DNA of 64,000 nucleotides from Cetorhinus maximus (lineage: Eukaryota). This document shows positions 36,185 through 41,594 of this stretch, piece after piece. Location of the stretch: NCBI RefSeq assembly GCF_964194155.1, contig NC_135898.1, forward strand, positions 47,554,001 to 47,618,000, in the 5' to 3' direction. The notes under the pieces were generated by a model, which was given only the letters and a program-made list of their open reading frames with translations, was not told where the DNA came from and searched no databases. The position numbers and the translations under genes are program-made. Numbering within the stretch: position 1 is the first letter of the stretch; every line of letters starts with the position of its first letter.

Positions 36185-36453
36185 TGTTGTAGGGTGTTGG
36201 TCACAGTTCGATAAGTCTGAAGAAGTCTTTGTAAGCATATGTAGGTTAACTGTGTCTTTATTGACTCTTAGATTTATTTACAAATATACAGTAATGGTAC
36301 AAACTAGGAGCTGCCTCCATGCTTGCTGGTACACACAGCTCTGTCCAACACTAGACTGACTCTGGTGTGAGTCATGTGCTCTTACATCGGTGTGTGGGCA
36401 GTACTGTACTCAGTTCTACATTAATCCTATATGTCCCTGACTCTTATACTACA
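36185..36453 (-). repeat. 3' LTR
   Basis: Direct repeat of 41321-41594, roughly 75-80% identical by eye, preceded on the minus strand by a polypurine tract. Confidence 0.88.
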
Positions 36454-36695
36454 CTTCCCCCCAAGTCTTTTTCCAATGTATTTTAAGTGATTATAGTTTA
36501 CCTTATGCCTTACATTATTATTACAATCACACATTTACATTGTCATTACTACATGACCACCACCTCATCTCCCCCCTTCAAGTCCTTAAATTCAAAGGTT
36601 CAGGCAGTCTGGAGACCTTATAACTTTTCTATATCTCTTTGCATGACTGTTGGAGGAGTGGCAGGCTCTGTCACTGCTGCTTCTCTCAGTAGTTT

Positions 36696-38862
36696 GGGCC
36701 AGAGGACGCCCGCCAAGGTCATCGAGGCCAACAGGACAGCACAGTGGGCAGGCTGTCTCAGATGCCAGTGCCAGTGAGAGGGGAGCACTTAGACGTAGCA
36801 CCCTGAAACATAAATTTAAGGCACCTTAGGCACGCTACGGGTTTCTCAGTGGTGGTTTTATGTTGCCCCGCTATTAGATGATGACAAGTTGGTGTGATGT
36901 GTAACACCTTTGTATTCATTTTATTTTCTGCTTCATTTTGTTAATTCAGTAAATTTTGATATGTGAGCATGGCTCAGGGTGATTCCTTACTTCTGCAGGT
37001 GGACAGGAACACATGATGTTATGAGTGATTTGTTTGTCATTGAGCTTTATTGACAAGGCACAGAGTTAATGTTCCTACCCAGTCAGATTTTGCTCTCAGG
37101 TATCGAGTATGGAGCCTGCAGCCCAGGCTTGTGTTGGAGGTCCATATGTGGTGGGCTAGCTGAAGGTTGGTTGGATTAAAGCCCTCCCGGGTGTCTCTGT
37201 CCCCCTGGAGTATGCCCGGGTCAGCGTCTACCCCCTCAGTGTTCTCCTGTGTGTGCTCATCCTCGGACTCACTGCTGGACTTATCGTGTGCAGCCACAGC
37301 CACTGCATCTACATCGTCTTCCTCCGCTACGTCCCCCCTTTCCAGCGCAAGATTATGGACAGCGCAGCATGCAACCACCATCAGCGAGACACCCATCTGG
37401 GGGGTATTGGAGTGCGCCCCCTGAATGGTCCAGGCATCTCTAGCGCATCCTGACAAGACCGATGGCTCTCTCCACCACAGCCCTTGTGTTGCCCTGGCTC
37501 CTATTGTACCGCTGCTCAGCTCCTGTTCTTGGATGGCGGAGAGGTGTCATGAGTCACCTTCTGAGGGGATAGCCCTTGTCACCCAGCAGCCATCCACCCA
37601 GCCGGGCTGGAGCACTGAAGAGCCCCGGCACCTGGGAGTGTCTGAGGATGTAGGCGTCGTGGGAGTTGCCTGGGTACCTTGCACAGACTTGCAGAATCAG
37701 CATCCTGTGATCACACACTATCTGCACGTTCATGGAGTGGAATCCCTTCATGTTGACGAAGGCACCGGGCTCACCTGCTGGCACCTTGATGGCCACATGT
37801 GTACAGTCTATTGCACCCTGGACACAGGGGAAGCCAGCAATCACCACGAAGCCTCTGGCTCACTCTGTCTAGCTGGCCTGGTCCCAGCGGTAGTGGATGA
37901 AAATCAATACACGCCTGAACAGAGCGTCTGTCAACTGCTTGACACAAGTGTGGACAACTGACTGGGAGACTCCGCAAAGATCACCCACCGAGCCCCGGAA
38001 AGAACCAGAGGCATAGAAGTTGAGGGCAGCCGTGACATTCAGCGTCACTGGCATGGGGTGCCCACTCACACAGTTGGAGCAGATCTCAGGGCCTATCATC
38101 TGACAAATGGAGGTCACTGTCTCCCTTGAGAGACGGAGCCTCCTTCGGCACTGCACCTCAGACATATTGAGGTAGCTGCTTTGCCGCCTGTATACCCTGG
38201 CAGCAGGATAGTGGTGTCTTCTGCAGCCCCTTCCACCTTGGACTTCCTGTTGGCCTGCATCCCTTGTGCCTGTGCCTCTCCTCCCAAAGGTGACTTCCCC
38301 TGGAGGCTGAATGTGGACTCCTGGCCTCCTCCTCCTCTTTCTGGCCCTCCCTTCCTCCTCAGAGGAGTTGCCTCCAGTGGATAGCACAACTCCCATTCCC
38401 AGGCTAAGGGAAGGCTTCCTGAAACCAGCAAGGCCCCAGAAATGATGTTTACTCCAGAGTGCAGACCTGAAGTCTGTTACTGCTGTCCAAGCAGCTGTGA
38501 AGAGTTTTGAAGTATGCCTACTCACACAGGCAAGTAGCAGTAACTTTAAGCATTAAATGTCTGACAAATAACACTCGCGACCCCAATCACCCCTCTTATC
38601 CCGGTTTATAAAAATGTGGCCTACCTACCTGCCCGTTGCGCCTGTGCGACAACCTGAAGATCGCACAGGCCTTGAAAAATCGGCACCAATTATTAGCTCA
38701 AGGGCCTTAAGTGGCCTGTTAATTAATGGCAGACGTGCGTCGGAGAACATCGTGTGCCCGCACTGAAATATCACGATGACGCACGCCCGATATTACCGCT
38801 CGTCATTTTATGTGTCAGCATGCAGGGCCCGCCCCCACACGCCAACGAGAAAATTCTGGCCC
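36696..38862. mobile_element. Second Harbinger copy, left-truncated (Myb gene mostly lost)
   Basis: Colinear with 6912-8744. Right TIR AAAATTCTGGCCC ends at 38862. Confidence 0.92.
37156..38396 (-). pseudogene. Harbinger transposase (HARBI1-like) with DDE core retained
   Basis: GFPCVQGAIDCTHVAI, KGFHSMNVQIVCD, YPGNSHDAYIL, WLLGDKGYPL and VACCAVHNLAL motifs. In-frame stops at 37869 and 37554, plus frameshifts. Confidence 0.92.
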
Positions 38863-39560
38863 TGGACATTTGGTTCTGTTCGGAATCTTTCTTCAATGGT
38901 CATTGACTGCTCCTTGGTCTCTTTCAATTCATTCGTTAGGTTGTCAATCTGTTCCGTAGAATTTCTCTTAGTTGCTTTCAAAGTCTGGATTTTCTCTTCC
39001 ATATTGCGTATCTCAACCTTCAAATTGTTCAGATTGGACCTGAGTTCAAGAAGTTCATCAATTTTGATTGTTAATTCTGCTTTCAAGCAACTGTTCTGAT
39101 GCACCAGCAATTCTTTCTCCTGTCCCTGGCGTTTTGCACAATGCTTACAAGAGGCGTTTAGTGCTTGAAGTTCATCTAGTTTTAAATATCTTTGTTGAAT
39201 TTGCTTCTGCAAGTTCATCATTTAAGCATTTCAAGTCCTCTTTCAAGTACTTGACGTCCTGTAAGCGACATTCCAGTGTTCTCATCAGTTCTCATTTTTC
39301 CTTTACAAACACATCTTTCGTACATGAAAATTGGTCCTCTACACTGATCAGTTTTTCTTTAGCAGAGCATAATTCCTCTGAGCTATCCTTCAAGCTCAGA
39401 TTCTATAATTGCACTTTTGCCAATTGTTTCCGAGACTCTTCACGCTCTTTTGTGAGGAGTTCTACTTGCTCTTGCCATTCTAGGCTCTTGATTTTCATCT
39501 CTTCATCTATAACTTTGGAAATGTAATGTTTTCCCAAGTTTTCTTCCATTTTATTCAGCT
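38863..39560 (-). pseudogene. TPR: Intronless nucleoprotein TPR-like N-terminal coiled-coil fragment inside the LTR element
   Basis: DQFSCTKDVFVKEK*ELMRTLECRLQDVKYLKEDLKCLNDELAEANSTK / [48 protein letters not shown]...LKETKEQSMTIEERFRTEPN aligns with recalled vertebrate TPR. Stops at 39403 and 39292; frameshift near 39188. Confidence 0.8.
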
Positions 39561-40144
39561 CTGTAGTCTCTTTCTTGTACCTCTTGGCTTCTTTCTGGAA
39601 TATGACATTCCTGAGTCTTCTCTGCCAATTGCTTCTTCAGTTCTTTCAAGGCCACAACTTCTTTGAGTGTATTTTTTCCTGCTGTTGTGCCTGGTTGTAT
39701 TTTTGGTTGCTTTTCCCAACTCCCACTTAGAATTGCTAAAAATGGAACTCAGAGTTGTTATTCCCTCCTGGTACCTTTGTGACACCTCAGAAAATTGTTT
39801 GTTCAGATCTCAGACATTTTGGTTCATTAAATACTTTAATTTATTGTGCCTTTTCAAAGATATATACGCAGCTTGAATTTTGTGTTTCAAATCTTCCAAT
39901 TCAGCTTTGATGCAAACATTTTCCACCTTATTTCATTTTCCTTTTGCAGGGTTTGTATATTTTTAATTTCATCAGATAGCTTTCCTTCATTCACACTCAG
40001 CTGTTCACTCTGCATTGCCTTCTGCTGTTGCAATTCAGGAAATGTGTCGGGGTTTCCAAAAATATATATTTTTAGGGCTTCCAGAAAGTTCTTTGCCTCT
40101 TTGGTGCCCTTGTGTGGCTTACTCGAATAATGTCTTTTACTCTT

Positions 40145-40420: not shown

Positions 40421-41004
40421 GCCCTTGGAGGAGTCCAAATTGTTGCGGATGAGTGGAATTCTGATCCCTGGTTAAATTTTTAAAATTGCAGATTCTTCTT
40501 TAAGAGCTTTCTGAATTTCAAGATGTCGTCGCCATTCACCTGGAGAGAGAGATTTCCCGCACTTGCTGATTTCGGTGGGCTCCGCTATAATGGCAATCAT
40601 GCTCACCTTGGAAAAGTAAATTCTCAACAGTGGCTGCCCGGGACAGCTACCTACAAAACTCTATTGTTCAGCATTTATGCTTAAAGTTGTAAATTTGTTG
40701 AATCCTGGCTGTAGCTTGCCTTTAGCTGTGTTTAAAAAGGCGTGATTCTCCCAGAGTATTCAATTAAAATTTATAAATCTTTCTGGAGCAAGCTTGGACA
40801 CCCCATGTTAAAGGTGCCGACTTGGGGATTGGGATTTTTGCAATGACTTTTTTTCAAACCGCATTTCTGACTCTGAAATTTTTAACGATTTCTCAGGACT
40901 TGCTGTTGCCTGGAATTTTAAAAGATTCAGGTCACCCTTGCTAGGTTCTGCTGACTCTGCACTCTGGGATTTCCGGCTGGACTTCCAATTGAAGATGCAA
41001 TGGA

Positions 41005-41100
41005 AACAAAAACAGAAATACCTGGAAAAACTCAGCAGGTCTGACAGCGTCGGCGGAGCAGAGTAAAGTTGACATTTCGAGTCCTCATGACCCTTCAACA
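41005..41100 (-). mobile_element. Penelope-like element terminal-repeat fragment with 14-bp TSD
   Basis: TSD GAAGATGCAATGGA at 40991-41004 and 41101-41114. Insert reads tgttgaagggtcatgaggactcgaaatgtcaac...cagacctgctgagtttttccagg...tttttgtt. Confidence 0.7.
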
Positions 41101-41320
41101 GAAGATGCAATGGAGTCTTCTGCTGCAGTAAGGAATTTTAAATCTCTGCCTTCAGCTTCCAAACTTTAGTTTGGAGACTTTTCTTGGCAATTTTTCCTCT
41201 GTGTCTGTGCTTCAAGAGCGTCTTTTCATATCAGAATACTTGGCTGAATTTCTCAGCCTTCCAGCATTTTAGCTTTTCTCTGCAGTTCCTGCAAGGTTTT
41301 TTTTTTACAAGCTACTGCCA

Positions 41321-41594
41321 TGTTGTAGGGTGTTGGTTACATTTTGGTAGATCTGAAGAAGTCTTCGTAGTAATATGTAGGCTAACCGTAAATCTCTATT
41401 CACTCTTAGAGCTATTTACACATATACAATAAAGGGTACAGGCTAGGAGCTGCCTCCATGCTTGCTGGTCCACATGGCTCTGTCCAACACTCAAATGACC
41501 CTGGGTGCGGATTCTGTGCTCTCTTAAACACCATATGGACGTTACTGTACTCAGTCCCACATTAACCCTATATGTGCCAGACCCTTACACTACA
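41321..41594 (-). repeat. 5' LTR
   Basis: Direct repeat of 36185-36453, followed on the minus strand by a TGG-starting PBS. Confidence 0.88.

Follow-up and report, generated by a model that had tools for sequence, protein, structure and literature searches.

What, if anything, does a long terminal repeat (LTR) retrotransposon gain from carrying the coiled coil of a nucleoporin? The question is raised by an element on the minus strand of a 64,000-nucleotide stretch of the Cetorhinus maximus genome (contig NC_135898.1, positions 47,554,001 to 47,618,000; hereafter the window), where it occupies positions 36185-41594. The original prediction, made from the sequence alone, described two LTRs, a primer-binding site (PBS) and a polypurine tract enclosing about 2.7 kb of the element's own interior, a nested Harbinger transposon excluded, with no recognizable pol and a segment of TPR encoded instead. 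This anatomy proved correct (Table 1): the LTRs are identical at 220 of 267 aligned bases (82%), a Pfam search of the six frame translations of the interior reports no pol family, and the TPR piece is broken by stops and frameshifts. The window element is a dead copy of a non-autonomous Gypsy-type LTR family. We report here that this family joins spliced, internally deleted pieces of two host coiled-coil genes, TPR and UACA, to a truncated gag, and that the resulting protein has very probably been under purifying selection in the element itself.

Host pieces and gag lobe

Pfam assigns the stop-free piece 38862-39221 to the TPR family PF25481 (41.5 bits for a cut-off of 27, the next family reaching 26.8 bits), whale-shark TPR matches a family copy at E=9e-28, and the window copy aligns with the spliced host TPR coding sequence (CDS) at 70%, free of introns. 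A generic myosin or SMC coil is ruled out by these specific matches. When the 252-residue open piece of another copy (P0003) was compared with 3085 candidate proteins, 11 matched, three of the TPR family and eight shark UACA proteins, the alignments covering 127 residues of whale-shark TPR (65%) and 61 residues of UACA (69%). All close protein matches come from sharks. The TPR piece had been placed at 39560-38863 and given about 200 codons; the assignment holds for 39390-38863 (~175 codons), whereas 39955-39490 is UACA, which had been missed together with two linkers. Natural copies begin with gag, linker 1 (~83 codons) and UACA residues ~695-765, 799-847, 848-990 in long copies only, and 991-1048; these are followed by linker 2 (33 codons) and TPR residues ~98-311 with an 11-residue gap, 338-355, and 419-440. 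The UACA stretch varies from ~110 to 300 codons, while the TPR stretch is constant in length. The donors of the two linkers were not found, linker 1 matching neither the sister elements described below nor the TPR region.

The host TPR gene lies on C18; joining its exons, whose ends were checked for GT-AG, yields an open CDS. The copies cross exons 3-9 contiguously and continue with pieces of exons 10 and 12; since they run straight over the exon junctions, the TPR part was taken from mRNA, as had been proposed. Intron loss is shown for TPR only, the host UACA locus not having been located. Three TPR deletions are common to the copies: one of 33 nt in essentially every copy, and two of 96 and 186 nt that recur in all three subfamilies. 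The 96-nt deletion is flanked by two identical 13-nt runs, and the 33- and 186-nt deletions show microhomologies of 5 and 3 nt, respectively. No poly(A) is seen at the TPR end of the captured piece. Kinase fusions use a part of TPR whose first 97 residues are absent from the captured piece.

According to the original prediction, the capture had replaced gag-pol. Pol is indeed absent, whereas gag is partly kept, positions 40469-40203 encoding its first capsid lobe. This segment matched four gag-like proteins (E 8e-5 to 7e-4) among five matches, the top one being an unrelated repeat protein, and nhmmer aligns the gag remnant with sister gag at E-values down to 1e-43. The related gag matches Retrotrans_gag and PNMA; Pfam does not recognize the remnant itself. 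Fold comparison of residues 1-90 of a related-gag model, whose mean predicted local distance difference test score (pLDDT) is 68, has retroelement capsid lobes as its seven best matches (Z 6.3-7.3, root-mean-square deviation 2.7-3.5, 75-87 aligned residues), among them PEG10, Copia, Arc, MLV, RSV, and Ty1. Foldseek on the gag model returned no match at E<=0.001, and a sequence search of solved structures with gag returned only dArc (E 0.26). The chimera departs from gag at the end of the first capsid lobe, and the second lobe, the zinc knuckle, and pol are gone.

Sister elements share the LTR, 5' leader and 3' tail of the chimera, contain a full gag, and carry no cargo. One of them, L125, encodes reverse transcriptase (RT), RNase H and an integrase zinc domain in Gypsy order; pol-bearing same-LTR elements of the L125 type are the likely helper. 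The chimera is a Ty3/Gypsy derivative without a pol of its own, its gag being limited to the first capsid lobe. Sister LTR pairs are 83-90% identical (11 pairs) compared with 82-88.5% in 10 chimeric copies, so the two families overlapped in time. Within this sister family, L108 and L122-L141 have the same LTR and leader, a full gag and protease remnants, mostly no RT, and an uninterrupted length of 3.1-3.7 kb; the pol of L125 and L132 is degenerate.

Copies, reading frame and selection

The family is not confined to the window. A DNA search matched 40 of 40 scored candidates, namely the window and 39 others at 80-85%, and a protein search matched 150 of 150, with no open frame over 396 codons among the matches listed. 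A 22-base motif in the TPR part occurs 266 times as compared with three times for its reversed control. The motif is found in 44 of 54 known copies; the family has at least ~263 copies and likely 300 or more. Among 40 loci cut wide, 10 have both LTRs complete, measure 3.5-4.6 kb and show the LTR-pair identities given above; their 5-bp target duplications are exact in four, matched at 4/5 in three, and at 3 or fewer positions in the remaining three. A tree of the host gene and 96 copies, those out of 108 that have at least 500 aligned bases, with rough bootstrap values, supports three subfamilies, A, B, and C, of 39 (including the window), 30, and 27 rows. A multicopy, non-autonomous family had been anticipated, and its many copies in three subfamilies rule out a single retrocopy landed in one LTR element. 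A search for annotated proteins of near length found no product of the family among 895 candidates. Three pairs (L060/L029, L177/L178, and L084/L173) have near-identical TPR parts, pointing to segmental duplication or conversion; L060 bears the short-type UACA and L029 the long type. Four subfamily C copies (L173, L176, L183, L197) have in common a ~39-nt insertion in linker 1 that repeats neighboring linker sequence and appears to keep the frame.

Individual copies are decayed. In a column-by-column count, the majority columns of subfamilies A, B, and C keep a single frame that starts at the gag ATG and extends through TPR, over ~550-760 codons, in agreement with the predicted gag-TPR chimera. 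The first firm stop column lies near codon 615-620 in short A and 760 in long A and C, B being ~65 codons shorter than short A. Earlier columns in which a stop is the commonest codon are few and all minority cases, and the three checked in A are CpG-prone. For subfamily C, an alignment of 26 fragments is open at occupancy thresholds of 0.5 and 0.6, not at 0.4. Apparent frame shifts in B and C were an artefact of fixed alignment columns, and separate alignments are open. Junctions are in frame at UACA/TPR in 35 of 36 cases, at the TPR deletions in 25/31, 12/15, and 3/4, and at the UACA deletions in 21/26 and 11/17. The gag start codon, which is not ATG in the window copy, is ATG in 27 of the 39 rows covering the site.

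Comparison of host TPR with the commonest codon of 53 copies, two short copies having been dropped, gives dS 0.625, dN 0.137, and an omega (dN/dS) of 0.22 (p=6e-9 against 1), to which the host branch contributes synonymous change. By contrast, copies compared with the commonest codon give dS 0.095, dN 0.107, and omega 1.13 (0.91-1.0 by subfamily): decay after insertion is neutral (0.9-1.1). The original prediction had listed ways in which it could fail; TPR is the specific match, copies are many, the frame is open, and dN/dS is not near 1. The element differs at 42 residues that are the same in the host and the whale shark. Provided that synonymous sites in the host do not outpace neutral DNA, stem dS is at least ~0.27, and the omega of the element stem would then be at most about 0.5. 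Between subfamilies, with no host branch involved, omega of the TPR part is 0.36-0.72 (p 0.015-0.36, the comparisons not being independent), and the constraint seen in this comparison is located in the TPR part and linker 2. Polarized element-only changes in the TPR part number 20 synonymous to 26 nonsynonymous (p 0.01-0.03). The true frame has a ratio of 34:61, as against 16:67 and 17:71 in shifted-frame controls. Proline or glycine was gained in none of the 42 fixed amino-acid changes as compared with 315 of the 3000 changes seen in decay (p=0.019); the fixed changes do not avoid core hydrophobic sites in particular (p=0.57). Once transitions and CpG are controlled for, values of 1.05-1.09 are obtained for rare variants and, over the whole frame, of 0.65 for variants present in at least five copies (transitions p=8e-4), with 0.45 in gag and 0.71 in UACA. 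Before this control, pN/pS in the TPR part had dropped from 0.97 to 0.35 as variants became more frequent, a trend discarded because transition and CpG bias explain most of it. In our judgment, purifying selection very probably acted on the protein of the element itself.

Possible roles of the fusion protein

The reading that we favor, with a probability of roughly 40%, is that the fusion is a capsid-anchored, cis-acting coiled-coil dimerizer, selected because it is useful to the element. Pieces of host UACA and TPR mRNA would have been picked up through template switching during reverse transcription. Once translated, the fusion protein would enter helper particles via its capsid lobe; its coiled coil may form a dimerizing rod that replaces the lost second lobe and zinc knuckle, and the protein would act in cis, aiding the copy that made it. 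The dimerizer role is proposed by analogy with assembly-competent HIV Gag chimeras, in which a leucine zipper can stand in for nucleocapsid (PMC3413349). A frequency pattern such as that of the shared variants is expected only if products act in cis (PMC9073684).

Several observations weigh against this reading. At 1.5 A per residue, a coil of 450-600 residues would measure ~65-90 nm, longer than the ~45-50 nm width of a Gypsy particle, and an element that has lost the zinc knuckle is left without the usual RNA hook. With a generic dimerizer, there is no reason to expect TPR to be more tightly constrained than UACA. Selection on element-only branches is modest, and it is spread unevenly and placed differently by the different tests: polarized changes outside the TPR part are neutral-like (14 synonymous to 35 nonsynonymous, p=0.4-0.6), omega of UACA between subfamilies is 0.7-1.5, that of gag is 0.07 for A-B and about 1 against C, and the shared variants of the TPR part give 0.82 in the main set (p=0.16, not significant). 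The frame evidence is weaker than it looks because deletions between coil repeats, through their microhomologies, tend to keep the frame, and the gag/UACA distance per copy is uninformative (9/12/11 mod 3). Lastly, no intact copy, transcript or protein was seen, the RNA side comprising one run that gave scattered short contigs only.

In the main rival reading, the captured coil would have paired with the first coiled-coil segment of host TPR as a decoy, gag and UACA providing mainly a start and a spacer. Such a capsid-lobe/TPR-coil fusion would weaken a TPR-dependent barrier in germ cells, thereby evading basket retention of unspliced RNA or TPR-dependent transposon silencing, and would have been kept through three subfamily radiations. 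We consider this unlikely. In its favor, constraint between subfamilies falls in the TPR part and linker 2, and TPR length is kept while UACA varies. Export of unspliced RNA is limited by TPR (PMC3258255), which in mouse also serves the piRNA-directed methylation of LINE1 (PMC7618654). A complex model of whale-shark TPR 130-310 with a natural element piece scores 0.44 against 0.00 for the best control, with runs agreeing in 81% of contacts and partner pLDDT of at least 78; this weakly favors the pairing, given that at <=0.60 only 5 of 78 solved complexes passed, as did all four passing mismatches, and the pass may only mirror likeness to the TPR homodimer. A heterodimer would lose its register through the 11-residue deletion, and the element and host sequences differ at ~23% of residues. 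In addition, the decoy would act in trans and help all elements, and in mouse the LTR element IAP is independent of the SPOCD1-TPR link (PMC7618654). The domain map of TPR places the pore-anchor at residues 450-606 and two ZC3HC1 sites at 29-88 (ZBD1) and 386-481 (10.64898/2026.10.08.757499), and the SPOCD1 site is at 775-877 (PMC7618654). The pore-anchor, the first ZC3HC1 site and the SPOCD1 site are all absent from the captured residues, and only 419-440 of the second ZC3HC1 site is retained. As TPR control of unspliced RNA needs pore localization (PMC3258255) and the anchor is absent, direct pore targeting is unsupported, which weakens the earlier suggestion of a pore-targeting aid. Residues 419-440, lost from the window copy, overlap the segment 415-444 that is predicted to be clamped by ZC3HC1 (10.64898/2026.10.08.757499); the start of that coil, needed for binding there, is deleted. 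Were the decoy real, a Gypsy element would possess a host-derived counter-defense protein, and TPR would have restricted transposons in sharks long ago.

Two further explanations dispense with a function of the protein in the element. The cargo could be a chance capture for which only translation of a long frame matters, through RNA stability or ribosome-coupled packaging, while the protein itself is idle. Sense, in-frame capture is indeed the default (14 of 17 young Drosophila cases; PMC5131818), the cargo-free sisters spread as well, and comparisons between subfamilies give a neutral picture for UACA, linker 1, and part of gag. Stop avoidance alone, however, can neither give a dN/dS of 0.2-0.5 nor exclude proline and glycine, and the shifted frames do not reproduce the ratio of the true one, which makes this explanation improbable. 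Slightly more improbable still is a constraint exerted at the host level, where the low dN/dS would either predate capture, in a lost TPR paralogue or the gene of another species, or have arisen in a master locus that the host kept and that was later copied, such as one for a truncated-Gag restriction factor. Splitting the stem comparison would take outgroup DNA; only three sites polarize as host-derived, the element equaling the host at one of them, and the Ty1 capsid-lobe restriction factor is among the fold matches. On the other hand, one TPR locus was found in the source genome (1 match among 150 scored), none of the 150 matches listed has an open frame over 396 codons, a restriction factor should not amplify, and three subfamilies diverged after capture with omega below 1 in the TPR part. 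The cis-acting dimerizer remains our preferred reading.

The window copy and known host-gene captures

The features of the window element are collected in Table 1. At the Harbinger site, the LTR element lacks ~370 nt, the last TPR pieces among them. We take the PBS to be a candidate match to the 3' end of tRNA-Leu. A ~100-bp, very high-copy SINE-like (short interspersed element) insertion lies inside the leader at 41004-41103. Linker 1 opens with two basic clusters about ten residues apart (40130-40215, minus strand; IKKRDRKPPVKL*KSKRH in this copy), which could be a nuclear-localization or RNA-binding patch. Rfam on 35000-43500 and ARAGORN on the window found nothing. A second species has the same insertion: one of its contigs covers 41547-42000, across the LTR/flank junction, and differs at 20 of 454 bases. 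Outside the element, 42084-42266 and 42994-43176 form a 183-nt inverted repeat, 95% complementary and 727 nt apart, likely a small DNA transposon.

Table 1. Features of the chimeric element in window coordinates.
Feature	Position	Strand	Remarks
5' LTR	41321..41594	-	274 bp, TG...CA; same LTR in sister elements
Primer-binding site	41311..41320	-	TGGCAGTAGC (PBS-like); family mostly TGGTGGCAGC
5' untranslated region	40470..41310	-	Common to sister elements; carries SINE-like insertion
Gag remnant, first capsid lobe	40203..40469	-	~88 codons
Linker 1	39956..40202	-	~83 codons, basic at start; no match to sisters or TPR region
UACA coiled-coil pieces, short type	39490..39955	-	~Residues 695-765, 799-847, 991-1048 of shark UACA P0011
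Linker 2	39391..39489	-	33 codons, coiled-coil-like
Spliced TPR piece	38863..39390	-	Host residues ~98-283, with the family's 33-nt deletion; stops and frameshifts
Nested Harbinger transposon	36697..38862	-	DDE core ~37425-37811; DDE_Tnp_4, 95.8 bits
3' tail (remnant of pol end) and polypurine tract adjoining 3' LTR	36454..36696	-	
3' LTR	36185..36453	-	TG...CA on minus strand
Decayed 5-bp target-site duplication	36180..36184	.	GCTGC; partner CCTAC at 41595-41599, 3/5

Capture of host genes by LTR elements is known, and the shark family resembles several systems in part. In the gag-onc fusions of transducing retroviruses, Gag is joined to a host domain and spread depends on a helper; the domains are signaling ones, and such fusions are not known to form old genomic families. 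Engineered HIV Gag-leucine-zipper chimeras likewise combine a Gag part with a foreign dimerizing domain, but keep both capsid lobes (PMC3413349). The LTR-mediated retrocopies of animals described by Tan et al. 2016 (PMC5131818) are spliced partial host mRNA pieces between LTR-element ends, with several parent genes, in sense and often in frame, some with Ka/Ks below 0.5; unlike the shark family, with its hundreds of copies and constraint on element-only branches, they are young and low copy. Transduced frames occur in one or a few copies (PMC7264820). Maize Bs1 is also a non-autonomous LTR element; it contains exon fragments from several host genes and was amplified anew with switch points in common, but has 1-5 copies (PMC5131818, PMC7264820), whereas the shark cargo is coiled coil only, includes a nucleoporin and is joined at a capsid-domain boundary. 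CrocERV29 (KIT-ligand) and CrocERV31 (nectin3) are vertebrate LTR lineages amplified with captured host mRNA under purifying selection; these are endogenous retroviruses of 9 and 6 copies with a separate frame beside or replacing env (PMC4299795), in contrast to a pol-less Gypsy element with a Gag fusion from two donors. The literature searched, with repeat libraries (Repbase, Dfam), most subscription journals and supplements outside its scope, holds no account of the family. The family is set apart from the known systems by its copy number, the domain-precise gag fusion, the coiled-coil-only cargo including a nucleoporin, and the constraint on element-only branches.

Host genes caught by LTR elements usually travel as passengers in few copies; in this family, they reached hundreds of copies and, according to several statistics, their protein sequence was maintained, most clearly in the TPR part. 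For the annotation of shark genomes, many false TPR-like and UACA-like matches may have to be expected. For the elements themselves, the family suggests that a vertebrate Gypsy element gained a selectable advantage by capturing host genes, and it opens a testable question, whether mobile elements gain from mimicking the first coiled-coil segment of TPR.

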